In this document: positions 5,340 to 23,284 of the stretch, piece after piece
Layout: each line of letters opens with the position of its first letter
Position numbering within the stretch: position 1 is the stretch's first letter
NCBI GenBank assembly: GCA_003647435.1
Contig: QMMV01000001.1
Location: 1 to 35,759 of the forward strand
Length of the DNA stretch: 35,759 nt
Direction: 5' to 3'
From: Deltaproteobacteria bacterium
GTDB lineage: Bacteria > Desulfobacterota > Desulfobacteria > Desulfobacterales > C00003060
Notes under the pieces: model-generated
Databases searched by the model: none
The model's input: the letters and a program-made list of their open reading frames with translations, nothing else
What the model was told of the DNA's origin: nothing
Made by a program: the position numbers and the translations under genes

Positions 5340-5354
5340 CTTTGCACCTCCTTA

Positions 5355-6869: not shown

Positions 6870-6917
6870 ACAATTCCTATTTTTTAACACAATTCCTATT
6901 TTTTAGGACAAGTTCCT
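6870..6917 (+). promoter_or_regulatory. three direct repeats with 19-bp spacing upstream of the 7099 ORF
   Basis: ACAATTCCTATTTTTTA at 6870-6886 and 6889-6905, and a degenerate third copy ACAAGTTCCT at 6908-6917. Confidence 0.5.
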
Positions 6918-7098
6918 GCCGCTCGCTCGGTTGCCAACTCTGCCAAAGCCTTGGTTTTTGGCAAAGATTTAGGGGGATTGCATCAAGGTTTTTCCCGGAC
7001 ACAATGGGAAAACGATTCTGGCATGCCTCATGTATCTATATGTTTACGTCCGTGTTTGTTGCCCCATAAACGCTAAGCGAAAAATGGGAGGTCTTGGC

Positions 7099-7386
7099 AT
7101 GAGGAAACGCAACTGGATCCTTTTTGGAATCGCACTATTCTTGGGAATATTTATTGTGACGGTTAACGCTCAGGCCGGGAGCCCCGAGACTGAGCGGTTG
7201 CTGAAGATTCTCCAAAAACGGGGCATTATCACCCAAGCGGAGGCTATCGCCCTGCTGCAAGAGGTGGAAGCTGGTACGCCTCAGGGTTGTAGCTTTCTAC
7301 GGCGGTATCCTGGTCCTTCCTCCCGAAACGCAAAAAGGCCCATGGTACAGATCAACACACCAAGAGCTAAACTGAAAGGGACGTGA
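7099..7386 (+). CDS. signal-peptide protein, probably the truncated 5' part of an outer-membrane or porin-like gene
   Basis: MRKRNWILFGIALFLGIFIVTVNAQA signal peptide, then a helical segment LLKILQKRGIITQAEAIALLQEVE. After about codon 58 the sequence looks non-protein-like. The track start at 7030 is unlikely to be real. Confidence 0.45.
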   Translation: MRKRNWILFGIALFLGIFIVTVNAQAGSPETERLLKILQKRGIITQAEAIALLQEVEAGTPQGCSFLRRYPGPSSRNAKRPMVQINTPRAKLKGT

Positions 7387-7478
7387 TGTAGAAACTGGCT
7401 GGCGAGAGAAAGAAGGCGTGAAAGAGAAGGGAATTAATCGTAATTTCCCGAAAACAGGGGAACGGCGAGTCCTAAAAA

Positions 7479-7724
7479 TCAGAGTCGCTTTTTTGCAAAG
7501 GCTCGACCAGATGGACTCTTCAAATATGTCTCAAAGTCCAACGCCTGTTTTCGATCAGTGAAAGCAATGGCTGTTTTTATGCGCCACGGCTTGTATTTTA
7601 AAGTATGTGGAACTTGGCCGGAGTTGTGCGATTTCAGGCGTGAATCAAGGTCTTTAGTGAAACCCGTGTAATAATGTTTCGGATCAGACTCGGACTGTAA
7701 AATGTAAACATAATAAAATTTCAT
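7479..7724 (-). CDS. free-standing GIY-YIG nuclease family protein (UPF0213-like)
   Basis: 81 aa. FYYVYIL (GIY), HYYTGFT (YIG), a conserved R/H region (SRLKSHN) and E in ALDFETYLK. Confidence 0.88.
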   Translation of the reverse strand: MKFYYVYILQSESDPKHYYTGFTKDLDSRLKSHNSGQVPHTLKYKPWRIKTAIAFTDRKQALDFETYLKSPSGRAFAKKRL

Positions 7725-8001
7725 TGAGTCCTATTCTTGTAAGGCGTGCCGAGCCGTAGCTTCGAAACAGGAAAAGTATATATTTTATTTGCCCGACTTC
7801 GCCCTTCGGGCTACGTCGCGGCAGCCTTCTCTTCTCAACAAGTTTCGAAGCGAAGGCTGGTGGAGGGCTCGCCGCCTTCCGGAAATCCAGTCTCCCCAGC
7901 GCCGACACATCAAAAACCCTTTATTTACAATTCCTTGAGAGCTTCCAAGTGCCGTTCTCCGCGTCCCGCTGCGGGAAATGTTTTTCTCCACATTTTCCTT
8001 A

Positions 8002-8120: not shown

Positions 8121-8279
8121 ATATCGTAACCCGAGCATGACATATGGACGATAAAGTAGTAATTATTATAACCCTATCTTGCCTTTTCGTCAAAACATTT
8201 TGGATTTGACTTGACATATGACCGATATAGAGCTAATTTTATTACTACCATGTTGGAAATGCGTCAAATGGGTCAGCCA

Positions 8280-9086
8280 ATGAAACTGAATGAATTTCTG
8301 TCGCAGCACGCCGTGTTCACGGTGGACGAACTGGACCGCTTCCTGTCTGCCAGAGGGTCCGGCAAGCCGAACACCCGCAAGTCGCTCCTGACCTACTACC
8401 GCAAACAGGGACGGATAATACCTGTGCGTCGCGGGCTATATGCGACAGTTCCATTGGGTGGCGATCCGGCATCAAGCCCGGTTGATCCCTATCTTGTGGC
8501 GGCTAAGATGACCACGGACGCGGTTCTCGCATACCATACGGCCCTGGAATTTCACGGAAAAGCCTACTCGGTCTATACAAGGCTTTGCTACGTATCCATG
8601 AGCAAATCCCTGCCGCTTACGTTTCAGGCTCACGAATTTGTGCGTGCTCCCGTACCTCATCCCCTCAGGGCGAAGGGTAAGGAGATGTTTGGAGTCACCA
8701 GCCACAAACGGTCCGGGGTGGAGCTTAGGGTAACCAATCTTGAAAGAACCTTCGTCGACGTGCTGGACCGGCCGGACCTGACCGGAAGTTGGGAAGAAAT
8801 ATGGCGGTCCCTGGAATCGGTGGAGTTCTTCGACCTCGATCAGGTCATCGAGTACGTTCTCCTATTGGAGAATGCGACCACCGCCGGAAAGGTGGGTTTC
8901 TTTCTGGAACAGCACAAGGAAACCTTGATGGTTGAAGATGCACACTTGAATCCATTGCGAAAGATGCGCCCCCGGCAGCCTCACTATTTTATCCGCGGTA
9001 AGCGCAAGGGCTGCCAGTGGGTCAAGGACTGGAACCTGCTGATCCCGGTAGAAATCATGAACAAGTCCTGGGGAGAGGTGCTGTGA
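8280..9086 (+). CDS. abiEi: AbiEi-family antitoxin / transcriptional regulator (type IV TA)
   Basis: MKLNEFLSQHAVFTVDEL wHTH-like N-terminus, RRGLYATVP, and AYHTALEFHG C-terminal domain. Its stop overlaps the GTG of the AbiEii fragment (GTGA). Start is uncertain; the ORF is open from 8211. Confidence 0.8.
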   Translation: MKLNEFLSQHAVFTVDELDRFLSARGSGKPNTRKSLLTYYRKQGRIIPVRRGLYATVPLGGDPASSPVDPYLVAAKMTTDAVLAYHTALEFHGKAYSVYTRLCYVSMSKSLPLTFQAHEFVRAPVPHPLRAKGKEMFGVTSHKRSGVELRVTNLERTFVDVLDRPDLTGSWEEIWRSLESVEFFDLDQVIEYVLLLENATTAGKVGFFLEQHKETLMVEDAHLNPLRKMRPRQPHYFIRGKRKGCQWVKDWNLLIPVEIMNKSWGEVL

Positions 9087-9264: not shown

Positions 9265-9336
9265 TTAGCCCAATTCCTTTTCCAGGTACTCGGCCGTGGT
9301 CTGCTGGACAAGGGTGTGTTCGGTGTATGGCATCAT
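9265..9336 (-). pseudogene. remnant of a second hsdR (first 23 codons)
   Basis: MMPYTEHTLVQQTTAEYLEKELG resembles the canonical HsdR N-terminus. Its ATG overlaps the stop of the upstream ATPase gene (AATGATG). Confidence 0.5.
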
Positions 9337-10580
9337 TCCCCCTCCCACAATCGTGAAATGGGCACAGCGTAGAGCCTGTCGCCGAACCCCACCACCGCAT
9401 CACCGTCGTAGAGCACCACTCCTGCGGCAAATGCCTTTGCTGTTGCTGCCTGGAGCTTGCGAAGGCCCTTGAAGTCGGCGATGGTAACCGTGGAAGCGGC
9501 CTTTACTTCCACCCCGGCCACAAAGCCTTCGGATTCAAGCACCATATCCACCTCCACCTGATCCTTGTCACGAAAATGGCTGAACCAGACGACGCTTTCC
9601 TGCCAGCCGGCGTGCCGACGCAACTCCTGATAGACAAAGGTTTCAAGGATCCGCCCGAAAAGGGCGCGATCGGCCCACATGGAATCCTCATCCAACCCTA
9701 AAAGAGCGCAGGCCAGGCCGGTATCGCCCAGGTGCAGCTTGGGGGTCTTGACCAGCCTTTTCATCCGGTTGCTGTGCCACGGCGGCAATTCGTCCACCAG
9801 GAAAATCCGTGATAACAACGTGAGGTATTCGCGAATCGTCTGACGGCTGATCTGAAACGGACCCGCCAGTTCGGAAACATTTACCAGGCACGCGGACTGC
9901 CCCGCGGCCATGGCCAGCAGGCGGGGCAAGGCGTCCAGGGCGCTGATCCGGGCAAGATCCCGGATATCGCGCTGCACCAGAGTGTCGGCATAATCCCGGT
10001 ACCAGGCGCTGCGGCGGCGCGGGGTGGCGCGCACCAGCGCCGCCGGAAAACCGCCGCCGGCCACCCGCTGCGCCAGCGCTTTGCCCAAGCGCCGTCCGGT
10101 CTTGCCCGCTTTGAAGTCCGCCGCGAACAAGCGACCCAAAAAATCTGCCGCCTTTCCCTCAATCTCCGCCTGGGCCAGGGGGTGCAGCCGCAGGATCTCC
10201 ATCCGCCCGGCCAGCGAATCGGCAAGCCTCGGCACCAGCAGCACATTGGCCGATCCAGTGAGAATAAAGCTGCCGGGCTTGCGGCGGCTGTCCACTGCCG
10301 TCTTGAGCGAGGTGAACAGCTCCGGCACTCGCTGCACCTCGTCCAGCACCGCCTGCTCCGGCAGGTCGGCCACATAGCCCACCGGGTCGGCCTGGGCCGC
10401 GGCCCGCTGCACATCGTCGTCAAAGGTGAAATAGGCAAACCCCGCATCATCTCCCACCAGCCGGGCCAGCGTGGTCTTGCCGCACTGCCGTGGGCCATGG
10501 ATCAGCACCACCGGGGAATCCGTCAGGGCTTCCTCGATTCGCGGACGCAGAAAACGGGGATAGAATGCTGTTTTATCCAT
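9333..10580 (-). CDS. AAA ATPase with DUF4143-type C-terminus (COG1373-like)
   Basis: Walker A GPRQCGKTTL, Walker B VLDEVQRVPELF, and a C-terminal ETFVYQELRR region. Likely start is MDKTAFYPRF at 10580; the track start is 10598. Confidence 0.85.
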   Translation of the reverse strand: MDKTAFYPRFLRPRIEEALTDSPVVLIHGPRQCGKTTLARLVGDDAGFAYFTFDDDVQRAAAQADPVGYVADLPEQAVLDEVQRVPELFTSLKTAVDSRRKPGSFILTGSANVLLVPRLADSLAGRMEILRLHPLAQAEIEGKAADFLGRLFAADFKAGKTGRRLGKALAQRVAGGGFPAALVRATPRRRSAWYRDYADTLVQRDIRDLARISALDALPRLLAMAAGQSACLVNVSELAGPFQISRQTIREYLTLLSRIFLVDELPPWHSNRMKRLVKTPKLHLGDTGLACALLGLDEDSMWADRALFGRILETFVYQELRRHAGWQESVVWFSHFRDKDQVEVDMVLESEGFVAGVEVKAASTVTIADFKGLRKLQAATAKAFAAGVVLYDGDAVVGFGDRLYAVPISRLWEGE

Positions 10581-10604
10581 ACCGGCTATCTGTAACACAA
10601 ATAT

Positions 10605-10899: not shown

Positions 10900-11116
10900 T
10901 TGCTGCAGGGCGTAGTAGAAAATTAAGAGCCTGTCCCTTTTTTACTCAAATCCTGCGACGGGCTTTTGGTTCGAAAATTCGGGTGCTTTTTCGCACCACA
11001 GGCCGTGTTTCCAAACTTGCGAAAACGGCCGGCTGGCTCAATCCATTGATATAAAAGGGATTGCCCAACCGGACGAGCTTCGGACTTCATCCTTCGATGC
11101 CAGAGGATCTTGGGGC

Positions 11117-11231
11117 AAACAGAGAATGGACCTGCCTGCGTGCGGTACGCACAGGCAGGCGTGGGTTCGACCTGTCCCGCCGAAGCCTGTCAGGGCGAAG
11201 GAGGATTCCCTCCGCCATATCAAACGCGGTG
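11117..11231 (+). repeat. structured repeat, copy B
   Basis: See copy A. The palindrome is at 11131-11159. It lies just 3' of, and antisense to, the DUF4236-TPR gene. Confidence 0.85.
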
Positions 11232-11261
11232 TTGTAATAATCCAAGTCTCCAGTTCCACGA

Positions 11262-12302
11262 CTACAACCCTAATCTAATTGCCACGTCCTCATAGTCGGG
11301 GGCCTCAGCGTAGAGTTTCTCGAGTTCGCTGCGTGACCGCCGGTGCTGGCCGAGGTCCTCATAGACCAGGGCCCGTTCATACCTGAGCGCCTTAAGAAGT
11401 TCCTCGGAACGGCCTTTCTTGCGGCGCAGAGCGGCTGTTAATGTGTCCCGGGCCGCAGTTGCCAGACCGAGGTGCCGAAGGGCTTTAGCTTTGTAAAGCA
11501 TCAAAGCTGCATGGATAGGCGTCTCGTTCTCAATGCCCTCAACCAACCGTACAACCTTCTGGCAGACCTTCTTGTCGCCCGGATGAGCGTCCAGCAACAG
11601 CTCCGCAAGAGACAACTTCACCACCACGTCGTCGGGCTCGAGCCGGCGTAGTCTTTCCAGGCAGGCAATCGCGTCCTGCCACCGCTCCAGACGCTGGTAG
11701 ACCTCCACGAGGCCCAGCAGCACGCCCCGAAGATCCGGGCCCACATGTGCGGAAACCTCGCCCGTGATAGGCAGACTCATGACAGCGGAGATGCCGTACT
11801 TGGAGAAGTAACGGCCCAGACGGTTGTGCTTCTCGGCAGCCATGGCCAGATAGTCTGCTGCTTCCGTCAGCTGTTCCTTCTTAAGTGTCAGGAAGCCGGC
11901 AAGGTAAGCGCCGTCGGCCAGGTGAGCCGCCTGTTCAAGGTGCTGAAGCGCTTTGTCCTCATTCCCCAGCACCAATTCCCGGCACCCATCCACCAGGGAC
12001 TCCTCGTCGTCCGGCGTGACGAGCCGCTTGAAGAATCCCAGGGTCAGACGGTCTTCTGCGCGGACTGAAGGGAGCGCCGGTGCGACGGAAGACATGTTTT
12101 TCCTGCCACCTGACCTCCCGCTTGGAAGGGTTGTGGTGTAAAATAGCCCCGTTCCCGGAATACCCACCGTCGCACGTTTGCCTCGGGAACCAACGGTGAA
12201 CTTCGCACCTCGTGGTCCGAACGAGAGCGATCCACCCGACTTGCTCAGATTCAGGGTTACTCCTGGTGCAATCCTAATTCTTCGCCAAAAGCGGAAGCTC
12301 AT
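11262..12302 (-). CDS. DUF4236 N-terminal domain + TPR-like repeat protein
   Basis: MSFRFWRRIRIAPGVTLNLSKSGGSLSFGPRGAKFTVGSRGKRATVGIPGTGLFYT matches the DUF4236 pattern. The C-terminal 250 aa are helical repeats with TPR-like A/L/Y spacing. Confidence 0.8.
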   Translation of the reverse strand: MSFRFWRRIRIAPGVTLNLSKSGGSLSFGPRGAKFTVGSRGKRATVGIPGTGLFYTTTLPSGRSGGRKNMSSVAPALPSVRAEDRLTLGFFKRLVTPDDEESLVDGCRELVLGNEDKALQHLEQAAHLADGAYLAGFLTLKKEQLTEAADYLAMAAEKHNRLGRYFSKYGISAVMSLPITGEVSAHVGPDLRGVLLGLVEVYQRLERWQDAIACLERLRRLEPDDVVVKLSLAELLLDAHPGDKKVCQKVVRLVEGIENETPIHAALMLYKAKALRHLGLATAARDTLTAALRRKKGRSEELLKALRYERALVYEDLGQHRRSRSELEKLYAEAPDYEDVAIRLGL

Positions 12303-12358
12303 TTGTCAGTTTCCAATGCAACAGTGTTGCCCATCGGCTCCGTCATTCAGAAAATCAA

Positions 12359-15300
12359 TCACGAATCATACGATACATCTTCAGCGTGGACGCTTGGCCG
12401 CAACAACGCAACCCGAGCAGGTTTTTTCCGCGCCTCAGAAAAATACAGAGCTTTGAACCGTTCCATCTGCTTTATTCTGTCGATCAGCATTCGCTCTTGG
12501 TCCGAGCTCGCGACATTGCGCACCAACGCCTTCGCGTCAGCTTCGGTCAACCGCAACACGAGGTAGTTTGCGATTGCCGAGAACAGCGAGACGTTGAAGT
12601 CCCTTGCTTCCTGCGAAGCGAGTACGAGCGATATGCCATATTTCCGACATTCCTTGGCCATCGTTGGAATCAGTGTGAGCTTGGCAGCTCGGTGAGCCTC
12701 GTCGAAGATAACGGCATGTGTAATGTGGTCCTGGATGCCTCGGCGGAACATGTCCTTGTAAAGCCCGTAAAAGATCAGCGAAGCAAAAGCTTTTTGCAGG
12801 TTGTCGTTCTGCGTTTTGTGAATACGGATTACCACGGGCTCGTCGCTTTCCCAGAGACTTTCCTGCGAGTCAGTGAGAGCAAAGAAGCCATAGTCGGCCA
12901 ATTCCTCCAAACGCGCTAGCAGACTCTTCAGCCCGCGGTCTGATTTCGGGGTATCCCGCAGGATTGCCACAAAGCGTCCAAACTCCGGTTCTTCCAACTC
13001 GTTCTGGTCAGCGTTCGGATCGTCCCATCCTTTCTCAACGAAGCTCTCCTTAACAGCCCTACGGATACGTTCCCCCTGAATGTCTCCGAGCTCTGGGAAA
13101 ATCGCGACGAAAATATCACGTAGGGCCCCCGCCACATCAAGGTACGCCACCTGTGAACTTCTGTCCATGACCTGCAATGGATTAAAGCCCAGTCCGCGAA
13201 AATCAATGAATCGAATCGGACCCACAAGACGTTGTAGCTCATCATCGATGTCTTGATGATATGAAAACACGATGGGCCGTATGCCGGCGTCAAGCATCTG
13301 TGTGCACAAGTTCAACAGGCAAGTGGTCTTGCCCATTCCGGGTAGTCCTGCGATCAGAAGGTGTGGGTTCCCCTTTACCGTTAGCGGCCAGTCCACTTTC
13401 CCGCCTGTTAGCAGATCCGTTCCTAAGCGAATGCGAGGTTCGATGGCACCTTCAGTGCCTTTGCTGGAAGGCACAGGCTCCTGATGAGTCCCGCCGCTTG
13501 GAACGCTCGGTTGTGCTTCTATAAAGTCGGGAACGCTGGGTGCCTCTGGGGCCTTGGCCTCTTCCGGCGCGGATGGAGCAACCGATGGTCGCGTCTGAAC
13601 AAGGTTGTCTCGGGTGACTGAGTCGCGACGGAATTCCGAATCGGGCAGAAGCGCTGGACCAAACAGGAATATCCGTGTATCCCATTCTGCAGGAGATATC
13701 TCCAATGGATGAGCGCCCATATACTCAGGGCAAAACACCCATCCACGGTCACTTCGTGGTATTCCTGCGAAGGCACACGTCCCGCCCTTTTCGACCATGC
13801 GGTCAATCTCGGAAGAAATTTCCTTATACCGTTCAGGTGGCAAGTAATGCCGATGTGCTTTGTCGGCGTAAAATCGGAGTACACGGGCGAGTTTGGCCCG
13901 CCGGATTGCCCTGAACGGTGAACATACGTCTTCGTGGGAATACCAGTTTCCCCAACGTTCGCGAAGGGATTCGATTTGCTGGCGAATACCCTCGAGTACT
14001 TCCGGGCCTCGAGCGGCGCGCAGGTGTCGACGATACTTCACTTCCACGAATCGGAACACAAGCCCTTTACGCGACACCGCGGTCACATAGATCAGATCCG
14101 GCCGCGCCCCTTTGGCCTCATTGTCGCTATCGTCTGCCGAAACTGGCGGAAGCAGATCCCGGACATCGTCAACAGGAATAAAGAAGCCTTCGTCGAGGGA
14201 CAACCAGCAATCGGCACTGCGGCGAGCGTGGCGGCAATTCGCATGCGAGAGCGCTAGCGCAATGAGCTCGGAAGTCGGCGCTTTATGGCCCGTGAGACGT
14301 ATAGCCAAACGACCGCTGAGTGCCTTGAGATGTTCCATGAGAAACTCAGCATTGCGGCGACTGTGGCTAAGTGCCATCTGATCGAGTGCGCCGTCCAAAA
14401 GGTTTCTAACCTCTTCAAGATTGCTGGTTGATGTAATCAACTGAAGGCAACCCAGGTCTTCGCGTTCGGGCACGCAGTCAATTACGTAAGCATCGTATAT
14501 CTCTTTATTGTCACGAGGCGAATCGAAATACTCGATGCCTGCGTTGCGATCCAATGTAATGACCCAGTCGCACAGCCGGTGAAGTTCACGAAGGCTCTGC
14601 GCTTTGTCAGGCGGAATATCCGTCCGTAGGACGGGCACCTCACTCACCGTGCCGATGCTTCGGGCAACACAACGTTGCACGACGTGCTGTAGGCGTAGGA
14701 GGCGCTCCGTGTGTGTTCGGTCTGAAGGGTGTTTTTCACCATCCGTGGAGTTCAGGAGTATGCTGCGCCATCTTGGAGACGGGGCACTGGAGTACTTGCG
14801 TTCGAAGAACGATAACAGCCCGAAGGCATAGTACGGTCTAGGCTTTGAGCTGTCCGCATTCGGTTCTCCTACGACACGCGACTCAAACGTATCGAATGCC
14901 ACAGCAAGATGGGCGGCCGTATTTGGGTTCTGCTTGTTTTTGCGTGCCCAGCGAAGCCGTGGGAGATTTACTCCGCTTGGCAGGCTTAGGGACTCCAGCA
15001 TCCAGTGATCCTCAGGAGCCAATGCTCCCGCACCGCTACGTCGCTTCTCACGCACTTCTCCGATGAAGCGTCCGGCCACACCCCGCTGCTGTTCAGATGG
15101 ATACAGCCCCAGCACGAAGGCTGGCGACTGCTCCTGCGTTGTGTCTTCAAGGTCATCCTCTTCCCCCCTTCGATGATAGTGCTCATAAACACATCCGAGA
15201 GAGCGCGCCACCGTGAGTCCATCACCGGGTCTCAGGGCGTGTATGTGCAGTAACCGGGATGTATTATGGCATTCGATGTACTTGACAATCTCGTTGCCAA

Positions 15301-17431
15301 GAACCTGCGCGCTCTGTCTTCCCACCGTGGGAACCGTTTCGGCCGCCTGGCTGTCCCCCAAAGCCCTGGCCAGGATCGCCACGGCAGCCTTTGGTTCTTT
15401 ATCGGTGTCCGGGAGCATACCCACAGCATGGAAGCCCAATGTATCCGCAAAGACAAAGCAACTACCATCCTCTAAGCCAGGCAGAAACGCTGGGAACATC
15501 GCCCCATCCAAAGCTGACAGCTCCTCGCGCACATCCTTGGGGGGCATGTCCTGTTCAAAAGCGGCATAAAGCGCTAAATTGTCATATGCCACGTGCCATG
15601 CTACTCGAACCGGATGGCTTGGAAGCACAATCAGGCCAATTGTGCGGCCAGAAAGGGACTGCACTTCAACCGTATTAGCCAAAGCGAGTGACGGGTCACC
15701 TTTCTCCAACACGGCGGCCCAGGCAAGCAAATACTCTTTCACGACGGGATCAAATACCTTGGCATTCTGGTCATATATCTGGCCGACGCCACCGCCGCAG
15801 ACCGCAAACCGCTCAGCCATTCGACGACTTGCGTTTACCGTTCGTTCCCAGAGCGGTGTCCAGGATGTTCCTGACGAGGATTCGGCGGGAACTAGAGGAA
15901 TGAATTCCGCTGCTCCTGCTCGCGAGCCAGAGGCACGCACTTTGACCCGCCAACGCCCGATTTCACCGCGGTGGTGAGTCCATTGTCCCTCCACCTCAGC
16001 AATCAGAGGCGGTCGATACACGCGGAAGCTCTTACCCCGCTGGGGGGTGCGCATCAATACGAATCCCTTAGAATCGACGGGTAGGCTGGCCGTGGTTGAA
16101 GCAAGAGTTGAGCCCATTTCTCGGTCGTCCAGTTCGATCAGCCCTTCGCTAAACGTGCGCACTTTCTTGCCAACGCCCCCTCGTTCCCGTTCAGGTGGTT
16201 GACCGAAGCGAATCAGAAACTCCTCAGACTCCTGAGCCTCGACTGCATCGTTGCCAATCACTGAAACAACCACTTTAGCCGAAATGAGCGCGTCCTCGCT
16301 GAGCTCAGAAAAATCGTCATTGGTAAAGCGACACTTCTCTTCCTTCTTGGCCGAATGGGACACCTCCCGGAAGGCCAATTCCTCTTCCATATCCGTTACG
16401 ATCGCGACACGATATTGAACGGCGTCTTTCTCTAAGTTGTCCGGCCGTGCTTTCCACCGAACTTCAAGCTTCGAATAATGCCCGGTCTGTTCCGCGTCGG
16501 GCTCCAGGACCAGCACGGGCGGTGCGTCGGCGTCACCTTCTTCAATTAGCCCGGACCATTTTGCGACCTTCCCTGTCCTCGTTCTCCACGAAGACAGTTC
16601 GATGGCCTGAATCTCTTGAACGGCACCTTCGATTCGCAAGGCGTTCACCCACAAATGCCTCTTGTCTGCCAGTTCAGTCAAAGCCGGTACAAGCGGCTTG
16701 GTGGCGGCCGATCGCAGAAAACGCTCCAGATTCCTGATCTGCTCTTCGGAGGGGTTCAAGAGCTTCAAGGTTTCAATTCTCTGCGCGGGAGACCCCCCGG
16801 AGGCCGCCGTTCCCAAAAGATGGTCGATGAACATCCTCGATAGATTCAAATCGTCTTCAGTGTGTGAATCCTCGGTCCACTGGACCGGCCAAAGACCGAG
16901 CAAATACAGGTATTCCCCCGGCTGTCTCGCGTCAGCGGCCACGCGAATCAGGAAATCGAACTCAGTCCAAGACGAAACACTAAAGCGACGACCGTATCCA
17001 CGTGCTTTCTTGATTGCCTGCTCGGCATACAGTCGCGTCTCACGAGACAGACGACGCGTTACCTCCCTTCGTGCCAAACGCAATGCTTCCCGAAACAGAG
17101 TCGACTCGTCTACCTCGCGTGCCGCACTATAAATACCGTCCATGCCCGCGCCAGCCAAAGAGGTGTCAACAAGCAAAAGTACTGCCTCTTGCTTGGCCTC
17201 ACGGATTTCGACGGCCTGGTCGGCTGTAATGGTTCGCGCTGTGGAGTCGGCGGCATCGGCCACGCGCCAAACCTGCCAGCCTGAAGGGGCAAAGCCGGCA
17301 TCTGCCGCAAGAGCCTCTACGGCATCGGGTGTCAAGCAACGCACAAACGCCATCGTCCCAGGTTCGGCCTCGCCAAGCACTGTTTCGAAAGCCTGTTTAA
17401 GGATCGTCGCATGTAGTTCAGACCACTGCAT
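12359..17431 (-). CDS. 1690-aa giant protein: large uncharacterised N-region, PD-(D/E)xK-like motif, C-terminal HerA/FtsK-type P-loop ATPase (DptH-like by architecture)
   Basis: One uninterrupted ORF. RPDLIYV..x16..FVEVKYR at about nt 14035-14102; Walker A LIAGLPGMGKTT at about 13324-13360; Walker B AVIFDEAHR at about 12693-12720. Its start overlaps the stop of the upstream gene by 14 nt. Confidence 0.85.
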   Translation of the reverse strand: MQWSELHATILKQAFETVLGEAEPGTMAFVRCLTPDAVEALAADAGFAPSGWQVWRVADAADSTARTITADQAVEIREAKQEAVLLLVDTSLAGAGMDGIYSAAREVDESTLFREALRLARREVTRRLSRETRLYAEQAIKKARGYGRRFSVSSWTEFDFLIRVAADARQPGEYLYLLGLWPVQWTEDSHTEDDLNLSRMFIDHLLGTAASGGSPAQRIETLKLLNPSEEQIRNLERFLRSAATKPLVPALTELADKRHLWVNALRIEGAVQEIQAIELSSWRTRTGKVAKWSGLIEEGDADAPPVLVLEPDAEQTGHYSKLEVRWKARPDNLEKDAVQYRVAIVTDMEEELAFREVSHSAKKEEKCRFTNDDFSELSEDALISAKVVVSVIGNDAVEAQESEEFLIRFGQPPERERGGVGKKVRTFSEGLIELDDREMGSTLASTTASLPVDSKGFVLMRTPQRGKSFRVYRPPLIAEVEGQWTHHRGEIGRWRVKVRASGSRAGAAEFIPLVPAESSSGTSWTPLWERTVNASRRMAERFAVCGGGVGQIYDQNAKVFDPVVKEYLLAWAAVLEKGDPSLALANTVEVQSLSGRTIGLIVLPSHPVRVAWHVAYDNLALYAAFEQDMPPKDVREELSALDGAMFPAFLPGLEDGSCFVFADTLGFHAVGMLPDTDKEPKAAVAILARALGDSQAAETVPTVGRQSAQVLGNEIVKYIECHNTSRLLHIHALRPGDGLTVARSLGCVYEHYHRRGEEDDLEDTTQEQSPAFVLGLYPSEQQRGVAGRFIGEVREKRRSGAGALAPEDHWMLESLSLPSGVNLPRLRWARKNKQNPNTAAHLAVAFDTFESRVVGEPNADSSKPRPYYAFGLLSFFERKYSSAPSPRWRSILLNSTDGEKHPSDRTHTERLLRLQHVVQRCVARSIGTVSEVPVLRTDIPPDKAQSLRELHRLCDWVITLDRNAGIEYFDSPRDNKEIYDAYVIDCVPEREDLGCLQLITSTSNLEEVRNLLDGALDQMALSHSRRNAEFLMEHLKALSGRLAIRLTGHKAPTSELIALALSHANCRHARRSADCWLSLDEGFFIPVDDVRDLLPPVSADDSDNEAKGARPDLIYVTAVSRKGLVFRFVEVKYRRHLRAARGPEVLEGIRQQIESLRERWGNWYSHEDVCSPFRAIRRAKLARVLRFYADKAHRHYLPPERYKEISSEIDRMVEKGGTCAFAGIPRSDRGWVFCPEYMGAHPLEISPAEWDTRIFLFGPALLPDSEFRRDSVTRDNLVQTRPSVAPSAPEEAKAPEAPSVPDFIEAQPSVPSGGTHQEPVPSSKGTEGAIEPRIRLGTDLLTGGKVDWPLTVKGNPHLLIAGLPGMGKTTCLLNLCTQMLDAGIRPIVFSYHQDIDDELQRLVGPIRFIDFRGLGFNPLQVMDRSSQVAYLDVAGALRDIFVAIFPELGDIQGERIRRAVKESFVEKGWDDPNADQNELEEPEFGRFVAILRDTPKSDRGLKSLLARLEELADYGFFALTDSQESLWESDEPVVIRIHKTQNDNLQKAFASLIFYGLYKDMFRRGIQDHITHAVIFDEAHRAAKLTLIPTMAKECRKYGISLVLASQEARDFNVSLFSAIANYLVLRLTEADAKALVRNVASSDQERMLIDRIKQMERFKALYFSEARKKPARVALLRPSVHAEDVSYDS

Positions 17432-19250
17432 TGTCGTCCTCCGTCGCCGGTTCGAAACGAGGGCGCAAGCACTTCATGGCCTCTGCGTCGTTAACGCCAA
17501 CAAGCAGCCCAAGGTCTCGCAAGCGCCGTTCAAGAACAGCTCGGTTCAATCGCAGCAGTTCGTTTGAAATCGCCATTCCCACCGGAGCCGTATCGACACA
17601 GAAACCATAGCGATCATGGAGTATCTCCAAAAAACTTTTGAGTGCCAGCGGCCGAGATCTAAGCCTTTTGCCTTTTTGCAGCACGTGTCGGTGAACCAAA
17701 TAGTCTAAAACCGAATCCGTAAAAACAAGTGAACGGATTTCGCGCGTCCTTCTCGTTCCGGCGCTCACGACTGCCCGTGTGACGCGTCTCTTGACGGCCA
17801 GTCCATTCGGACGTCCAATCAGTAATGCCGAGTCGATCATTGTGATCAGTCTCGATTGCGTATTCTTGCGTCCCTGTAGTGCCGTCAAAGCCTCTGCAAG
17901 ACGCCAGACCGGATTCGGCTGAACGTTTTCATCTCGCAGTAGTTGTGCGTGCTCGGGGTAATCCTCTTCCAATCTTTCGGCCAGTTCAGCGGCTTTACGA
18001 TCCAAATCATAGAGAATCGGTTCGGCTTCCTCGCGACGTTTGTGGAGCAAATCACCCAGCAGGTTCAACCACTCGGTCGCATACGGCCGGGTCTGAACAG
18101 GGAGTTTTTTGACCTTGGGGTCGTAGTGTGCCCAGCGATCGAGCAGGCGAAGGGCCATCAGGACAACCGGGAAGCGTTCGATACGACGCATGAAATCATC
18201 CATCGACTGCTCGGCAAGCTTTCTGAGGTCCCGATCCACACCATTGGAACAATCCACGAAGAGGGAGGCTTGGCTCTGGTTGCGTCTGTTTCGTATCTCG
18301 CCAGTATCTGCCCATTCGAATAGAAGTTCGATCACGCTAGTCAGAATCGTCGTCAACCCGACCGCCATGCACGATTCCAATAGTTCCACGAAACTGTGGC
18401 GGGGAATTAGTGTTGAGTAGGCGCGGACGAAATTCCGGATATCCTCGGAGAAATACCTGGCCGCTCGCTCGGCAATCGGCCGTTGATTCGAAATCTTGTC
18501 CCCCTCTTTGCCCCGCAATTTGTCCGGAGCCGCCCCCAGCTGTTGCGCCAGGCGAATCATGAGCAACTGGTCCAGGCCGACGGGCGTCTTTTCGGCAAAG
18601 TGATCGGACGTACGGCTACTTATCTCGCCCCGTCGCGTGATACCCTGATGGAAGGCACGCAGAAGAACATTTGCTTCGAAATCCCGGCCGACTGCGAACC
18701 ACGTGCGATCCCCTTCGCGATTTTGCTGTACGTACTCGCCATTCTGGTTGGCTAACATTGCGACGATCATTTCTGGTACATAGCGCAGGTTTGTGACGGC
18801 GTCGGGAAGATCTACCCAACTGGCCATATAATGGGCCGGGGCGACGCGCTGGACTTGCTCCGTTCTGCCAAGGGAGCGTTTGGCATTTTCGAGGCAGAAG
18901 CAGAGCAAGAGGTCACCGAGAATGGCTCGTTCGGTTTCACCGTCAAAGCCCTCGAACGCCTCCGCTTCGGCCAGTTTACCTGCTACACGTTCGATCGTTG
19001 CCGCCCGCCGGCGTTCTCGGGGCGTTCCTGCGGTTCCGCCAAATACATCCAGGAACCGCCCTTTGCCCCGCCGTTGGGCGAAACGAAACATGTAGAATAC
19101 AGCCGGCAACACAGCGGAGAGGTCAAAATCCTGGACCGACACAGGTAATGCCCTTTCGTAATTGCCTGTCCATATTTCACGCGTCATGCCACGCCCAAAC
19201 ACATCATCGACGATAGCGCGGGCGGTGGTGGCTCTCTGGGCGGGCTTCAT
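17418..19250 (-). CDS. 610-aa protein with no motif I recognise (occupies the DptG position)
   Basis: Long ORF with an ATGA start/stop overlap with the upstream gene and a 14-nt overlap with the downstream gene. A GGAGG SD lies inside the end of the upstream gene. Confidence 0.8.
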   Translation of the reverse strand: MKPAQRATTARAIVDDVFGRGMTREIWTGNYERALPVSVQDFDLSAVLPAVFYMFRFAQRRGKGRFLDVFGGTAGTPRERRRAATIERVAGKLAEAEAFEGFDGETERAILGDLLLCFCLENAKRSLGRTEQVQRVAPAHYMASWVDLPDAVTNLRYVPEMIVAMLANQNGEYVQQNREGDRTWFAVGRDFEANVLLRAFHQGITRRGEISSRTSDHFAEKTPVGLDQLLMIRLAQQLGAAPDKLRGKEGDKISNQRPIAERAARYFSEDIRNFVRAYSTLIPRHSFVELLESCMAVGLTTILTSVIELLFEWADTGEIRNRRNQSQASLFVDCSNGVDRDLRKLAEQSMDDFMRRIERFPVVLMALRLLDRWAHYDPKVKKLPVQTRPYATEWLNLLGDLLHKRREEAEPILYDLDRKAAELAERLEEDYPEHAQLLRDENVQPNPVWRLAEALTALQGRKNTQSRLITMIDSALLIGRPNGLAVKRRVTRAVVSAGTRRTREIRSLVFTDSVLDYLVHRHVLQKGKRLRSRPLALKSFLEILHDRYGFCVDTAPVGMAISNELLRLNRAVLERRLRDLGLLVGVNDAEAMKCLRPRFEPATEDDNAVV

Positions 19251-22200
19251 GGCTGACCTCCTAATGGAAGCGGCTTGAGGACAATCTGCTGCCGAGGACC
19301 TTCGGACCGCTCATCGATTTCGGCAAAGACCCTATAAATAGTCTCGTCTTGCATGGGATTCCATACGAGCAATTCGCGCTCGTCCTCACGAACAAGCCGC
19401 TGGACGAAAATCGAAAGGTTGGCGAACGTATCATCTGTCGATACGTCTCCTAACTGGTATCCGTCACTTAGCTCCAGAAGGAGGTGGAACAACTCAGCTC
19501 CCAATCGCAGGCGTTCTTCTCTACCGTCACGATAGCGATAGATCAGAAATGCGTGTCGGTGTAGTCGATCAATACCCTCCACTGCGGGTGGCAGGTCGGG
19601 TTCGATCCGAAAGGCGTCGAGCGGTTTTTCAACCCAGAATGCTGTCTCAGTGGGTGTTCGAGGCGTGATACGCAAAGGAACGACCCCTTCCCGATCCAGT
19701 GCCTGTGGGGGAAGGTCTTCAAGGCGCGAGATACCGGCGCAGAGACGATCACGCAAAGTCCGCAATTCGTCGGCCTCCTGTACAAGGGCCAGATTGCGGA
19801 AAAGCTGAAGATCCCTCCCGCGGGCAAGATCTAGCACACGAGGGTCGCCGACAATCTGTTCAATGTGCTCCTTGGTCCATTCAAAGTAGGCTCGGCGGCG
19901 CGCTGATTCCAGCGAAAGTCGCTCGTATCGCGGCGCTGTCTTCGTACTCTCTGCAAATGGTCTGCTTAATAGATAGCGGTCGATTTGCGGATGGGCCTCA
20001 AGAGCAGGATCGAATCGTGCCAGCTCTCGGAGGGCTTCTCCTTGGCGTCCAGGGGAGTATGACACAAACGCCCGATCCCAATATGGCAGCGGGGTAACAT
20101 CAGAGCCATCATGGTAATCATCGCAGAAATGGACACCGAATAGAATATAGACCAACGCAGCCCGCAGTTCGCGAATCGTAATGTGCGTTTCCCCACGCAA
20201 GTGCACAGCCTGCAACGCTTCGAATAACCGACGACGGGCACGCTGACGGGTACTCGGATCAACGGGCTCCGGCACGCCCTCCGGCCCGAAAACACGGGTA
20301 GCCCGAAATACTTCACATCGCTCCTTCGCGGAACATGACTGACATGGCCTCCAAATCGCCGACGTTTTGTCACCTCCATAGAGTTGATCCAGCAGCCGCT
20401 CGAGGAAGTCAGTCTGGATGACTTTCCGGTCAGACGTAACACCTCCTACCAGCGATCTTCCGTTGAGATCAATGAACCGGATGTGAGATTCCCGCTTGGT
20501 CTCTTCGGCTTGAAGAAGCTCATATAGTTCTTCAGTGAGTGCAGTTGTATTCCCGCCATTGTGCAGCTCTATTCCTTCGATCCATTCCAGCAGCCGGCCG
20601 TCATTGATGGCCAACAGATGCACGATGTCCTCGGTGGGAAGACCTTCCTGGAAGGGGGCGAGGAATTTGTCGAGGATCTCGTCAGCCGAACGTCCACGCC
20701 AGGCCGCTGAGCCATCCAGATTCATGCGGACAATCAAGCCGTCATCCATCCTGCCCTCGAGAAGGCGCTCCGACGACGGGTGCTCGCCAAACCCGAGTCG
20801 TGTTGCGAGGTGTTGAAGCAGTGCTGTCTTGCCATCACCAGCGTTCCCGCACAGGATCACCAACCGAACGCGCCGTTCTCGAATGTCATGTTCCAATGTC
20901 TCTTCAAGCCGGGTCTCAACATAAGTCTGCGCAGCAAACGGCGTGTCTAAACCTCGCGTCTCGCGGTTACCCCACCGGGAACCTGGGTAGGATTGAAGCA
21001 GTGAGCGCAGCCATTCTATCTTGTGCTCTCGCAGATCCTGTAATCTGGAAGGTTCCGTTTCCGTTGGTTTCTGCGGCAATTCCTCTTCCGGCTGCTCCTC
21101 CGCTGGCTGCGGCGTCGTTAGAGCGGCCAATGCTTCGGTTGCAGAAGAAAAACGCTGACTCGGTTCTGGGTAGGTTGCCTTGTCTATAAAAGCAGCAAGG
21201 ATCGGATATTCATTACGATTGATGCCTTCCCAGTTTACACCTCTTTCTTTGGCCAGCTCTCCGCCGTACCGGAAGGGCTCTCTGTCGAAGACGACGTGGA
21301 AGAAACTAGCTGCCAAAGCATAAATGTCATCCGAAGCGGAAGCTAGTCGACCCTCACCATAGGAAGGTGAGCAATATAGAACCGTGCCTGGGCCACGGAT
21401 GGGCTCGCCAATCTTGTTAACGAAATCATAATCGGTCAGGACAAGGTCGCTTCCGGAAACGATCATATTGCGCGGGCTGACGTCCCCATGTACGAGGCCA
21501 TTGCGATGAAGCACGTCCAGCGCTTCACACATGAGGTGCAACCACCGAGCGGCCAAGCCTTCACTCGACGTTTCCTGTTGGTCTTCGGCTAACAATGGAA
21601 ACACGCCGCTGAATTCACCCAGTGGGGTGCCATCGAGCCATGTCATGAGGGCGACAAACTCATTTACTCGCCATTCTCGCGCTACCTCGTAGATTGCCGA
21701 AAGGCCTGCGTGGCGACCAAGATGGGAGCGAGCCAAGCCATACGACTTCAGTACACGCTGGCCTACCTCCGCTTCGTGCGCTACTTTGGCAACGTACGTT
21801 CCAAGATCCTCCTTTGTCGATGACTCAATCTCAACAACCTTGAACGCTGTCCCCACGCCTCCCGAACCAAGACGTGAGACAATGCGGTAATCACGACCGT
21901 GGAAGCGTACCAGTTGGTCTTCCGTCCAAAACCTTGCCGGCGGTGCCGCAGGCGGCGGTACGGATTCGCCGAGGAGCTGGGAGAAAGACACCTCCAGATC
22001 CTTCAGCGTACAGCGCTCTTGTGGTTCCTCTGCAAGGCCCTTCGCGAGCGCTTCCAATGCGGCCACACTATCTTCATCGTGACGTTCCTGAAACAAAACG
22101 TTCAAAGAAGCGCACAGCGAATACACATCCGACCGTTGGTCGGCAGCGCCTAAGCCCTGTGTTCGAACCTCAGGAGCTATCGTCAATTTTTGTTCAAGCG

Positions 22201-23272
22201 GAATCTGCTTAGAAGCGACCGTCACCTGCGAAGGAATCTTCATGCGGTCAAAGCCGGTGAGGATCGGTGAGTTGTCGTGTTTCACGAGGACCGTGTGCGG
22301 AGTAAGATTGCGGTGGACGAACGGTTGATCCTCCGTCCCTTCGCCATGAAGTTCAGATATAGTACGAATAACGTTCCGCGCGAACGCCAATCGGCTCATC
22401 GTATCCCATGTATCATCTAACACACGTTCTGCGATACATGGTGCGGCAGGGTCGACCACGGTGAAAAAGAACATCTCGCCCGCGTATCCCGGGGCGCTCT
22501 GGTACGAATCAAGAATACGCGGTGCCCACGTATGCAGTTGAAGACGCTGTAGCGCCTCAAACTCACGTCTGGCTTTGGTCTCGGCATTCTTGTCATCGCT
22601 TGTAGACAGGTCGTAGAGGTGCAGAATCACGCGGTCCTGTCTGGCAGAGTGAACCCCTTTGTATATCCGGTGGAACCGTTCTTCCCTCGGCGTTTGCAGC
22701 TCCAGGTTGACGTAGCCTCCAAACCGCCTGAGAGACCCATCTATGGCCACTTTGCTCTTTGGAGCCAACAGCCGGCTTAATGAGTCTATTTGTAAAGCAG
22801 ATAATATCGTAGGTTTCTCAAGTCCGACTGCCTTCTTCCATCCATTCAACGTATGGAAGGAAACACCTCGTACAACTGTTTCAGCGAGTCGCTGGGCCTT
22901 GGATGACTCACGAGTCAGCAAGATCACGCCATCCACATACGGAAGCACCGGAACCTTTCTACGAAGCGTTGTTCCGAGCTTACGCGCCTTATTCGTGATT
23001 TTGTCGACCTCTTGCTCCACTTCGTCCCTGTGTTTGTCCACCCATTGCGAATCCCAGTGCTTGACCTCTATAACGCGTATTCCAGATGGGCTAATCGCAA
23101 CAATGTCAATCTCGTCGGACTGTAGCTGATGGTTTACAGAGAAGGCCAGATTCGTTAAAAGAATCCATTTCCCATCGCCGGGCGTAGATTGCAGACGGTT
23201 CTTTAAGAATTCAAACGCCTTTAGCTCGCTCTCGTTTGCTGCGGGGCCGCAGGGAATGATGGTTACTTGCAT
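19247..23272 (-). CDS. 1341-aa fusion: NERD nuclease-like domain + degenerate kinase + intact Ser/Thr-type kinase + P-loop NTPase/Cys-cluster module
   Basis: NERD: DEIDIVAISPSGIRVIEVKHW. Pseudokinase: HRNLTPHT, GFD, and no Gly-loop or Lys. Kinase: LGSGGVGTAF, YVAKV, HGDVSPRN, DYD. Walker A: ILCGNAGDGKTALL. Also LLAINDG and CQSCSAKERC. AAGGAG SD 8 nt upstream of the ATG. Confidence 0.88.
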   Translation of the reverse strand: MQVTIIPCGPAANESELKAFEFLKNRLQSTPGDGKWILLTNLAFSVNHQLQSDEIDIVAISPSGIRVIEVKHWDSQWVDKHRDEVEQEVDKITNKARKLGTTLRRKVPVLPYVDGVILLTRESSKAQRLAETVVRGVSFHTLNGWKKAVGLEKPTILSALQIDSLSRLLAPKSKVAIDGSLRRFGGYVNLELQTPREERFHRIYKGVHSARQDRVILHLYDLSTSDDKNAETKARREFEALQRLQLHTWAPRILDSYQSAPGYAGEMFFFTVVDPAAPCIAERVLDDTWDTMSRLAFARNVIRTISELHGEGTEDQPFVHRNLTPHTVLVKHDNSPILTGFDRMKIPSQVTVASKQIPLEQKLTIAPEVRTQGLGAADQRSDVYSLCASLNVLFQERHDEDSVAALEALAKGLAEEPQERCTLKDLEVSFSQLLGESVPPPAAPPARFWTEDQLVRFHGRDYRIVSRLGSGGVGTAFKVVEIESSTKEDLGTYVAKVAHEAEVGQRVLKSYGLARSHLGRHAGLSAIYEVAREWRVNEFVALMTWLDGTPLGEFSGVFPLLAEDQQETSSEGLAARWLHLMCEALDVLHRNGLVHGDVSPRNMIVSGSDLVLTDYDFVNKIGEPIRGPGTVLYCSPSYGEGRLASASDDIYALAASFFHVVFDREPFRYGGELAKERGVNWEGINRNEYPILAAFIDKATYPEPSQRFSSATEALAALTTPQPAEEQPEEELPQKPTETEPSRLQDLREHKIEWLRSLLQSYPGSRWGNRETRGLDTPFAAQTYVETRLEETLEHDIRERRVRLVILCGNAGDGKTALLQHLATRLGFGEHPSSERLLEGRMDDGLIVRMNLDGSAAWRGRSADEILDKFLAPFQEGLPTEDIVHLLAINDGRLLEWIEGIELHNGGNTTALTEELYELLQAEETKRESHIRFIDLNGRSLVGGVTSDRKVIQTDFLERLLDQLYGGDKTSAIWRPCQSCSAKERCEVFRATRVFGPEGVPEPVDPSTRQRARRRLFEALQAVHLRGETHITIRELRAALVYILFGVHFCDDYHDGSDVTPLPYWDRAFVSYSPGRQGEALRELARFDPALEAHPQIDRYLLSRPFAESTKTAPRYERLSLESARRRAYFEWTKEHIEQIVGDPRVLDLARGRDLQLFRNLALVQEADELRTLRDRLCAGISRLEDLPPQALDREGVVPLRITPRTPTETAFWVEKPLDAFRIEPDLPPAVEGIDRLHRHAFLIYRYRDGREERLRLGAELFHLLLELSDGYQLGDVSTDDTFANLSIFVQRLVREDERELLVWNPMQDETIYRVFAEIDERSEGPRQQIVLKPLPLGGQP

Positions 23273-23284
23273 CTCGCTATCTCC

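Follow-up and report, generated by a model that had tools for sequence, protein, structure and literature searches.

The DNA considered here is a stretch of 35,759 nucleotides (nt), the window in what follows, at the start of contig QMMV01000001.1 from a Deltaproteobacteria bacterium of the Desulfobacterales (assembly GCA_003647435.1). It carries on its minus strand a very large gene, H, which a preliminary description had treated alone, reading its product as a nuclease followed by a translocase-type ATPase. H does not stand alone: with two further genes, F and G, which precede it, it makes up a fixed cassette of three subunits. We think it likely that H is the large effector subunit of a self-contained F-G-H defence cassette, belonging to the superfamily of DndFGH, SspFGH and the MADS core (MAD6-7-8). 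The start of each downstream gene lies in the end of the upstream one, with an overlap of 4 nt between F and G and of 14 nt between G and H; H is translationally coupled to G, and G to F. A scan of positions 11000-24500 for promoters and terminators returned no more than shuffled sequences do, so that the boundaries of the operon rest on the gene overlaps only. The three genes are the following.

19247..23272, minus strand: F, a 1341-residue fusion of a NERD domain, a pseudokinase, a Ser/Thr kinase, a DndF/SspF-type P-loop core and a C-terminal domain
17418..19250, minus strand: G, a 610-residue MAD7/SspG-like subunit
12359..17431, minus strand: H, a MAD8/DndH-like giant subunit of 1690 residues, last gene of the trio, with an ATG start and no internal stop

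The ATPase and nuclease-like domains of H

The open reading frame (ORF) of 1690 residues and all the sequence strings quoted in the preliminary description were located in the H translation; the position it gave for the nuclease-like motif (nt about 14035-14102) is refined to nt 14030-14104. It had found about 1100 residues without a nameable motif, a statement that we correct: this region holds RecA-like, helical, β-sandwich and α/β parts, among them the best-conserved segment of the protein. The parts of H, in order from its N-terminus, are given below; several rest on AlphaFold2 (AF2) models, with the predicted local distance difference test (pLDDT) as the measure of confidence.

16997..17431, minus strand, residues 1-145: α/β RecA-like domain with an invariant LLLVD…AGAGMDGIYSA segment (AF2 pLDDT 80-90)
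16652..16984, minus strand, residues ~150-260: putative helical, helix-turn-helix (HTH)-like domain (AF2 helices 154-256; same position as the HTH bundle of DndH, PMC10853773)
15872..16624, minus strand, residues ~270-520: predicted β-sandwich, immunoglobulin (Ig)-like domain or domains (AF2 all-β segment 273-409)
14432..15862, minus strand, residues ~524-1000: α/β middle region, common to MAD8 (BLASTP, family hidden Markov model, HMM)
14282..14581, minus strand, residues 951-1050: best-conserved segment, DWVITLDRNxGxEYFDSP…YVIDxVPER…LKxLSGRLAIRLTG
13637..14284, minus strand, residues ~1050-1265: PD-(D/E)xK restriction-endonuclease-like domain (conservation, AF2, alignments)
14030-14104, minus strand, residues 1110-1134: RPD…EVK motif, RPDLIYVTAVSRKGLVFRFVEVKYR
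13427..13636, minus strand, residues ~1266-1335: variable, disordered Pro/Ser/Ala linker region
13448-13591, minus strand, residues 1281-1328: Pro/Ser/Ala-rich stretch
12392..13426, minus strand, residues ~1336-1680: HerA/FtsK-type ATPase of the DptH kind
13322-13357, minus strand, residues 1359-1370: Walker A, LIAGLPGMGKTT
12689-12715, minus strand, residues 1573-1581: Walker B, AVIFDEAHR
12596-12628, minus strand, residues 1602-1612: sensor-1 Gln string, LVLASQEARDF

The pairing of a nuclease with a translocase ATPase stands up well to comparison with known proteins, the ATPase being the HerA/FtsK module of DptH and DndH, while RPD…EVK aligns motif for motif with the restriction endonuclease (REase) segment of DndH variants. 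PADLOC DndH models match the C-terminus of H at 3.3e-21, covering residues 1324-1668 only, and in other members of the family they likewise reach no further than the ATPase; the ATPase further matches PDB entry 7es4, the C-terminal domain of DptH, at 7.7e-6, and HerA models down to 1.2e-12, anti-phage HerA models included. BLASTP aligns H with DptH of E. coli, Massilia and Aliivibrio over the ATPase only (23% identity, E 2e-10). Its key residues are K1368 and T1369 in Walker A, D1577 and E1578 in Walker B, the Arg finger R1596 and the sensor-1 Q1607. The strings GLPGMGKT, VIFDEAH, ECRKYG and LASQE are invariant among homologues, and K1368, D1577, R1596 and Q1607 are retained in 59/59 diverged H sequences. 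An Arg finger and sensor-1 Gln of the ECRKYG…LASQE type define the HerA/FtsK clade (PMC10853773) and, by analogy, the H ATPase would assemble as a ring and translocate DNA. A full-length hhalign comparison of H with DptH (prob 99.2) lays residues 910-1675 on 911-1675, EVK on EVK and D on D; this score is carried by the ATPase, because region-limited runs are not significant.

The case for the nuclease comes from conservation. Of shuffled versions of H, 47% contain the bare pattern PD.{10,30}[DE].K one or more times, and by itself it is weak evidence; it is because RPD…EVK is conserved that we take it for more than chance. E1055, D1112, E1130, K1132 and Q1152 are identical in 120/120 listed homologues (67-89% identity), and in a more diverged set, which reaches down to about 31% identity, 52-55 of 59 sequences retain them. 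In a few diverged members E1130 is replaced by T or S, K1132 by R or Q, or D1112 by N or I, all ATPase residues being retained; judging from these replacements, they are possibly nuclease-dead versions.

An AF2 model of residues 940-1290 (mean pLDDT 71.6, above 80 over most of residues 1000-1265) arranges helices, β1 (1082-1086), β2 (1113-1119), β3 (1123-1133), a three-helix insert and two further strands (1229-1233 and 1253-1257). It places E1055 in helix α1, D1112 at the start of β2, E1130 and K1132 on β3 and Q1152 in the next helix, β2-β3 being a predicted β-hairpin that bears D1112 and E1130/K1132. The same model severs the segment 951-1000 from its domain, and that stretch is of low confidence. 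The α-β-β-β-α-β topology predicted in this way is the one expected for PD-(D/E)xK, with which the fold is consistent, though not proven. The preliminary description would have been refuted by a structure prediction that shows no nuclease fold here; this did not happen, since the predicted topology agrees, with the caveat that fold searches gave no significant match. The weak Foldseek lists are rich in PD-(D/E)xK folds (EcoO109I, McrC, CinB, BsmI, VRR-NUC, Cas4, UL24 and cap-snatching endonucleases), none of them significant.

Alignment limited to the REase region relates H to DndH variants of Rhizobium leguminosarum and Pseudoalteromonas that are linked to Dcm (E 2e-4 to 7.5e-4, prob 25-46), with β1, RPD and EVK in register; the Rhizobium variant itself is recognised by PADLOC DndH (3e-71) over the part that begins with the REase. 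By eye, the D…EVK…Q motif of H, which sits about 200 residues before the ATPase, also aligns with E. coli DptH. The linker that follows shows the lowest conservation in the protein (mean identity 0.34-0.38 in the homologue alignment); its residues 1267-1290 have a pLDDT below 50 in the AF2 model, which reaches residue 1290 only, and DptH has a variable linker at the equivalent place.

H as a chimera, and its partners F and G

On sequence criteria, H is a chimera of a MAD8-type body and a DptH-type HerA/FtsK module. Residues 596-1221 align by BLASTP with the MAD8 of Piscinibacter at E 1e-30, over a span that includes PxHP…WHVA, the DWVITLDRNxGIEYFD segment, LSGRLA and RxDL…VEVK. The H family HMM scores 217 bits on the body of MAD8 and 8-10 bits on its ATPase; against DptH it scores 74-98 bits on the ATPase and finds nothing on the body. 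A 'HerA/FtsK capture' has been put forward for proteins of the DndH kind (PMC10853773), and this split homology is a clean example of it. The MADS proteins of Piscinibacter are likewise recovered by BLASTP with F (4e-37 and 1e-15) and with G (1e-11). As bona fide MADS controls we used Bacteroides finegoldii and Piscinibacter gummiphilus, which pass the NCBIfam equivalog cut-offs (MAD2, MAD4, MAD5, MAD6, MAD7, MAD8) and whose MAD8 proteins have about 1850 residues, MAD6, MAD7 and MAD8 being the mandatory signature proteins of MADS; full-length DptF, DptG and DptH comparison sequences came from plasmid records and one E. coli record.

F is itself a composite protein, in which the following parts were distinguished.

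22946-23236, minus strand, residues 13-109: NERD domain, itself bearing an intact D…EVK (Pfam NERD 7.5e-11)
21953-22705, minus strand, residues ~190-440: pseudokinase, HRN replacing HRD
21038-21895, minus strand, residues ~460-745: Ser/Thr kinase with intact G-loop, Lys, HGD…N and DYD, active-looking by its motifs
19958-20968, minus strand, residues 769-1105: DndF/SspF-type P-loop kinase core with a Cys-rich insert

The core shows CGNAGDGKT, LLAINDGRLLEW and the Cys-rich insert as conserved elements, and hhalign places it (residues 769-1105) on residues 26-311 of DptF with prob 94.6 and E 7e-8; a DndF core is marked by Walker A, an ND strand and an enlarged lid. F as a whole matches NCBIfam MAD6 at 1.6e-51 (175.6 bits, short of the cut-off of 460) and PADLOC SspF at 6.6e-15, besides Pfam Pkinase at 1.6e-18 and the PglW models of PADLOC (1.7e-18) and NCBIfam (1.3e-14). 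G matches NCBIfam MAD7 at 8.1e-47 (160.5 bits, short of the cut-off of 410), PADLOC mad7 at 2.5e-11 and, weakly, PADLOC SspG at 5.2e-6; its homologues carry PF26611 MAD7.

A short F, of 606-629 residues with the DndF-type core only and neither NERD nor kinases, occurs in the trios of loci L042 (3579-5399) and L093 (3453-5342) and probably of L015 (250-2016). In these trios H shows 65-71% identity in the matched segment and its nuclease motif is intact; housekeeping genes lie upstream. Because such trios exist with the same H family, the NERD-kinase module of F is separable or accessory; this agrees with the literature, where fusions of this kind are regarded as co-effectors.

Relation to known systems

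MADS, described from P. aeruginosa SMC4386 (Cell Host Microbe 2024; bioRxiv 10.1101/2023.03.30.534895), has a core in the same order as the trio, with a kinase-bearing giant, a MAD7 of ~550 residues and an ATP-binding giant of about 1650-1860 residues; F aligns with MAD6 over nearly its entire length, and G with MAD7. Unlike MADS, the trio is not accompanied by the MAD2 methylase, by MAD3/4 or by the MAD5 S subunit, and the ATPase of H is of the DptH type, not of the MAD8 type. In DndFGH (E. coli B7A, Salmonella Cerro 87; PDB 7es4), similarly, the third gene codes for ~1700 residues, has a start that overlaps G, and ends in HerA/FtsK with the Arg finger and sensor Gln seen in H. DndH resembles H in its variable linker and, judging from predicted structure and motif alignment, may also resemble it in the RecA-like, helical, β-sandwich order of its N-terminus and in a D…EVK…Q motif upstream of the ATPase; the first gene has a DndF-type P-loop core in both, and DndF variants fused to kinase or NERD have already been described (PMC10853773, PMC12839542). 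The differences are that the first ~1280 residues of H go undetected by DndH HMMs or BLASTP, that G is not DptG-like by sequence, DndG being a triple winged-helix protein, and that no dndBCDE genes lie nearby, the window having no Dnd genes at all. The classical DndFGH is paired with phosphorothioation by dndABCDE, the two gene sets being often unlinked (PMC10853773).

SspFGH of Vibrio anguillarum FF-93 (PMC8092258) shares with the trio its three-gene make-up, the Walker A of F and a C-terminus of H that resembles FtsK; PADLOC SspH matches residues 943-1079 of H at 0.0044, the Ssp matches being weak and partial, and the SspBCD phosphorothioation partner of that system is absent at the trio. 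PglW, of type 2 BREX or Pgl, resembles the NERD-pseudokinase-kinase N-terminus of F (PMC12839542). The C-terminal half of F, by contrast, is a DndF-type P-loop core and not the sensor half of PglW, and neither PglX nor PglZ is present.

NCBIfam MAD8 did not match H at E < 0.01, no curated DptH or DndH model matched it over its full length, and TIGRFAM DptH gave no match. Several H homologues are already labelled 'DptH' by JGI. The NCBIfam MAD8 model NF047742 covers the first 200 of about 1850 residues and the MAD6 model NF047741 the first 612 of about 1390, and PADLOC mad8 is a 314-residue ATPase profile. The consequence of such small coverage is that annotation pipelines will miss diverged relatives, this clade among them, and understate the sizes of the proteins.

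Two side observations concern the relatives themselves. A Rhizobium leguminosarum plasmid (locus L010, 2208-13075) and a Pseudoalteromonas plasmid (L013, 562-10970) carry DndFGH-like trios flanked by a DNA cytosine methyltransferase, with no dndBCDE, the Rhizobium trio being flanked by Vsr in addition; these are F-G-H modules paired with 5-methylcytosine methylation. On the Bacteroides finegoldii plasmid NZ_OY725936.1 (L099), where MAD2, MAD5, MAD6, MAD7 and MAD8 are present by NCBIfam cut-offs, a PP2C-type Ser/Thr phosphatase (11634-12299) directly follows MAD8 and is itself followed by Fic and RhuM; such a pairing of kinase and phosphatase hints that MADS may be under reversible phospho-control.

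Distribution of the trio

Scanning GTDB with exact 8-mer patterns, each species being represented by one genome, gives lower bounds and detected relatives of H in at least 189 of 185,579 species genomes, all those listed being metagenome-assembled genomes. They spread over more than 12 phyla, their phyla and classes including Planctomycetota, Latescibacterota, Acidobacteriota, Gamma- and Alphaproteobacteria, Binatia, Chloroflexota, Spirochaetia, Thermodesulfobacteriota, Bacteroidota, Omnitrophota, Verrucomicrobiota and Gemmatimonadota. Clustered at 50% identity, the H clade counts 890 representatives, 303 of them at E ≤ 1e-30. A cultured carrier is Rhizobium phaseoli R630, the plasmid pRphaR630c of which (NZ_CP013540.1, 21217-31933) has the trio at 40-42% identity. 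No trio was found in phage records.

Eighty loci were fetched and about 10 kb around each inspected. Five are cut by contig ends and 4 are visibly degraded, and the remaining 71 have F-G-H in the same order with the same spacing; the order is kept in 71/75 informative loci. Intact trios also stand on metagenome contigs (L001, L003, L007 and L094-L096), and on others (L004-L006 and L097) the order is kept with F truncated or with F and G split. There is no recurrent fourth gene near the trio, since clustering placed no family of flanking ORFs in more than 6/56 loci. Searched with tblastn (E 1e-5), the surroundings of the 80 loci revealed neither DndB-E nor Dcm; close to 4 of the loci, and to no others, lay an HsdM-like gene. 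The Pfam-annotated metagenome neighbours are housekeeping, toxin-antitoxin and other defence genes, with a methyltransferase in L007 only, where HsdM/S adjoins the trio.

The H gene is sporadic, horizontally spread and not housekeeping. This disposes of the objection, raised in advance by the preliminary description, that the ATPase might belong to an unrelated housekeeping family. The idea that H is a DNA pump of housekeeping or of mobile elements (FtsK/TraD/VirB4-like), with no role in defence, has next to no chance of being right: weak matches to Pfam TrwB_AAD_bind and FtsK_SpoIIIE and to NCBIfam CedB and VirB4 would suggest it, but they are confined to the P-loop, at or below curated cut-offs, and the gene, present in at least 189 of 185,579 species genomes, is in the loci inspected invariably accompanied by F and G, conjugation genes being absent throughout, and has no match in phages.

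The N-terminal and middle regions of H

AF2 divides the N-terminal 940 residues of H (mean pLDDT 72.2) into four parts, α/β, helical, all-β and a less confident α/β one. Foldseek relates this model to an SF2 helicase cassette, that of Brr2 (prob 0.98, E 4.7e-5), and residues 1-145 are probably an inactive DNA-binding domain of the SF2-helicase type; a profile search of PDB sequences with the N-terminal domain gave nothing significant. The β part meets Ig-like β-sandwiches with a Foldseek probability of 1.0 (GbpA, PapD/FimC, domains of β-glucuronidase and β-galactosidase, CARDB). DndH is known to place an inactive SWI2/SNF2 C-domain, an HTH and two β-sandwiches in this order (PMC10853773, PMC12839542). 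The order predicted for H fits the published one, with no sequence-level link to DptH: limited to regions, hhalign against enterobacterial DptH was not significant for the N-terminus (E 0.1) or for residues 900-1075 (E 0.015).

Further on, residues ~524-1000 stand where DndH has its target-recognition domains and an inactive methylase of the Dam type, and are by position at most a candidate counterpart of these; pLDDT falls below 50 in several stretches between residues ~690 and 900. The segment 951-1050 has an identity of 0.90-0.95 across 120 homologues, outranking the nuclease and ATPase motifs in conservation. Exact 8-mers from it recur across phyla and recovered the 189 species-level genomes. 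The segment is also present in MAD8 and recognisable in E. coli DptH, with a weak SspH match. A sensor or scaffold role had been proposed for the large N-terminal region, and this agrees with the DndH order, where DNA-binding and sensor domains likewise precede REase and HerA/FtsK (PMC10853773).

The genomic surroundings

Around the trio, the window holds a defence context made of a type I restriction-modification (R-M) operon, PDC-S19, PDC-S01 and AbiEi.

8211-9086: AbiEi-like regulator
9333-10598: AAA_14/DUF4143 ATPase, PADLOC PDC-S01 (3.7e-166)
11262-12302: DUF4236 and TPR protein, downstream of H
23285-23779, minus strand: 164-residue ORF that codes for no more than the Walker A-bearing N-terminus of a ResIII/SF2 helicase (Pfam 2.5e-7), overlapping the end of hsdR
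23752-31115, minus strand: complete type I R-M operon (hsdM 29436-31115, hsdS 28106-29446, hsdR 23752-27114)
27111-28115, minus strand: DUF3644 gene, PADLOC PDC-S19 (2.6e-167), between hsdS and hsdR

Two neighbours were considered as members of the trio and rejected. The DUF4236-TPR gene has no matches in the 80 loci, and the 164-residue helicase fragment no counterpart in any other trio locus; the latter is probably a gene remnant at the junction of two inserted units. G+C is about 0.44-0.54 at 1-8000, a part that holds rmlABCD and response-regulator genes, and 0.54-0.63 from 9000 to about 33000, which suggests an acquired island; no tRNA gene was found at an island edge in the window. The HsdR of the R-M operon has a GIY-YIG nuclease domain (residues 115-183) before the usual HSDR_N domain.

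The trio and the R-M operon are on the same strand, hsdR ending 480 bp upstream of F. One could thus imagine a MADS-like composite in which HsdM/HsdS marks self and F-G-H is an extra restriction arm, the more so as MADS has an N6-methylase and an S subunit upstream of MAD6-7-8 (bioRxiv 10.1101/2023.03.30.534895) and as HsdM/S adjoins the trio in L007 too. We hold this to be very unlikely, and have rejected the operon as a MADS modification module. HsdM is an ordinary one (PADLOC MTase_I 2e-220; MAD2 at 51.9 bits for a cut-off of 720), HsdS gives no match to MAD5, and the R-M system has its own complete HsdR; moreover, the truncated helicase remnant stands between the two units, and the 71 loci have varied neighbours. 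Given how the trio travels, its adjacency to R-M is treated as clustering within a defence island.

How the cassette might work

Much can be borrowed from experiments on the relatives. DndF, DndG and DndH assemble in a ratio of 2:2:1, and DNA without phosphorothioate is bound, translocated and nicked by this complex (PMC10470545); nicking by DndFGH is switched off when the phage kinase JSS1_004 phosphorylates it (PMC12345140). SspFGH inflicts damage on DNA that is not modified and stops phages from replicating (PMC8092258), and MADS restricts unmethylated DNA, with mad6, mad7 and mad8 each required (bioRxiv 10.1101/2023.03.30.534895). That H would be the effector of a restriction-like system, as was first surmised, gains support from this kinship, MADS and DndFGH being experimentally validated restriction-type defence systems.

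By extension from DndFGH of E. coli and Salmonella, F, G and H would assemble into one complex on DNA, which G and the N-terminal domains of H would engage. The HerA/FtsK module of H would then pump DNA at the expense of ATP, and its nuclease domain would nick or cut the passing DNA, damaging that of an invading phage or plasmid. The P-loop core of F, with the kinase and NERD where they are present, may act as sensor, regulator or back-up effector. How the host would spare itself is the least supported step of this scheme: target recognition or activation built into the trio is favoured over a dedicated DNA mark, because no modification genes travel with the cassette.

Several observations weigh against the assignment of H to a defence cassette of this superfamily. 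F, G and H all miss the NCBIfam MADS cut-offs, and DndH models cover only the ATPase of H. The similarity of G to DptG is nil by BLASTP and by hhalign (E 0.34). For the nuclease, Foldseek gave no significant nuclease match (best E 0.98 in PDB and 0.13 in BFVD), a profile search of PDB sequences with this region returned nothing, and hhalign of the REase alone against enterobacterial DptH falls short of significance (E 0.17). Neither an inactive methylase nor target-recognition domains of the DndH type were recovered in the middle region, which has no methylase match by Foldseek, the translation having no [DNS]PP[YFW]. A cassette without linked modification genes would need a control mechanism, because unrestrained DndFGH and SspFGH damage host DNA. 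Finally, a defence function of F-G-H in this clade would follow by analogy only.

In a further account, the trio depends on a mark on DNA, be it phosphorothioate, methyl or another, whose genes lie at a distance in the same genome; it would then be an ordinary restriction module, gated by modification, with an unlinked partner. The canonical DndFGH and SspFGH are toxic, harming host DNA, if their phosphorothioation partner is missing (PMC8092258), dndFGH is often unlinked from dndABCDE, and true MADS relatives carry MAD2 and MAD5; inspection reached, besides, about 10 kb around each locus only. We consider such an unlinked partner rather unlikely. Neither DndB-E nor Dcm occurs in any of the 80 loci, with an HsdM-like gene near 4, and the methyltransferase of L007 is the only one in the Pfam-annotated metagenome contexts. 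The bare trio, furthermore, moves between phyla, and its partner would need to be found anew in each host.

At the other end would be a restriction machine independent of modification, in which a MAD8-type sensor-nuclease body captured a DptH-type pump and the host is protected without a DNA mark. We give this a slim chance. Regulatory parts of the trio itself would keep such a machine inactive until infection sets it free, the candidates being the nucleotide-binding core of F and, in trios that have it, the Ser/Thr kinase acting on the complex. Phospho-control of the trio where the kinase is present is plausible by analogy, if speculative; the kinase cannot be a universal safety catch, because there are sister trios, likewise found alone, whose short F has neither NERD nor kinase.

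It is finally conceivable that RPD…EVK in H is a structural or DNA-binding relic, H being motor and scaffold, and that the NERD of F cuts DNA or nothing does. The nuclease domain has indeed no significant fold match, D, E or K is missing from 4-7 of the 59 diverged sequences, all of which retain every ATPase residue, the NERD of F has its own intact D…EVK, and the bare motif of H is common by chance. Yet the residues are invariant in 120/120 homologues and the family extends over more than 12 phyla, the predicted topology is right for the fold, the motif of H is intact in trios where F has neither NERD nor kinase, and the homologous segment of DndH is described as keeping all residues needed for endonuclease activity (PMC10853773). 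We find the relic very unlikely, and retain H as the putative nuclease-bearing effector of the cassette.

What the clade adds

A giant combining nuclease and HerA/FtsK as the third gene of F-G-H, an F fused to NERD and tandem kinases, and the decoupling of such genes from modification genes have all been published (PMC10853773, PMC12839542). What we did not find in the literature searched is a widespread, distinct clade lying between MADS and Dnd and failing the curated models of both, nor, within it, the lack of the MADS methylation module together with a clean chimerism of body and ATPase. The clade is a minimal three-gene version of MADS and DndFGH with no modification module, present in more than 12 phyla with one cultured carrier, the plasmid-bearing Rhizobium phaseoli R630. 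As its architecture, kinase-fused F included, is already catalogued, it opens no new category; rather, it sharpens known questions. The way DndFGH-type machines work when separated from phosphorothioation is considered an open question (PMC10853773), and the mode of DNA restriction by MADS is listed as unknown (PMC12904381). Here, MAD8-type giants share with DndH an invariant D…EVK…Q motif which, as far as sequence can tell, is a candidate catalytic site for restriction of the MADS type.

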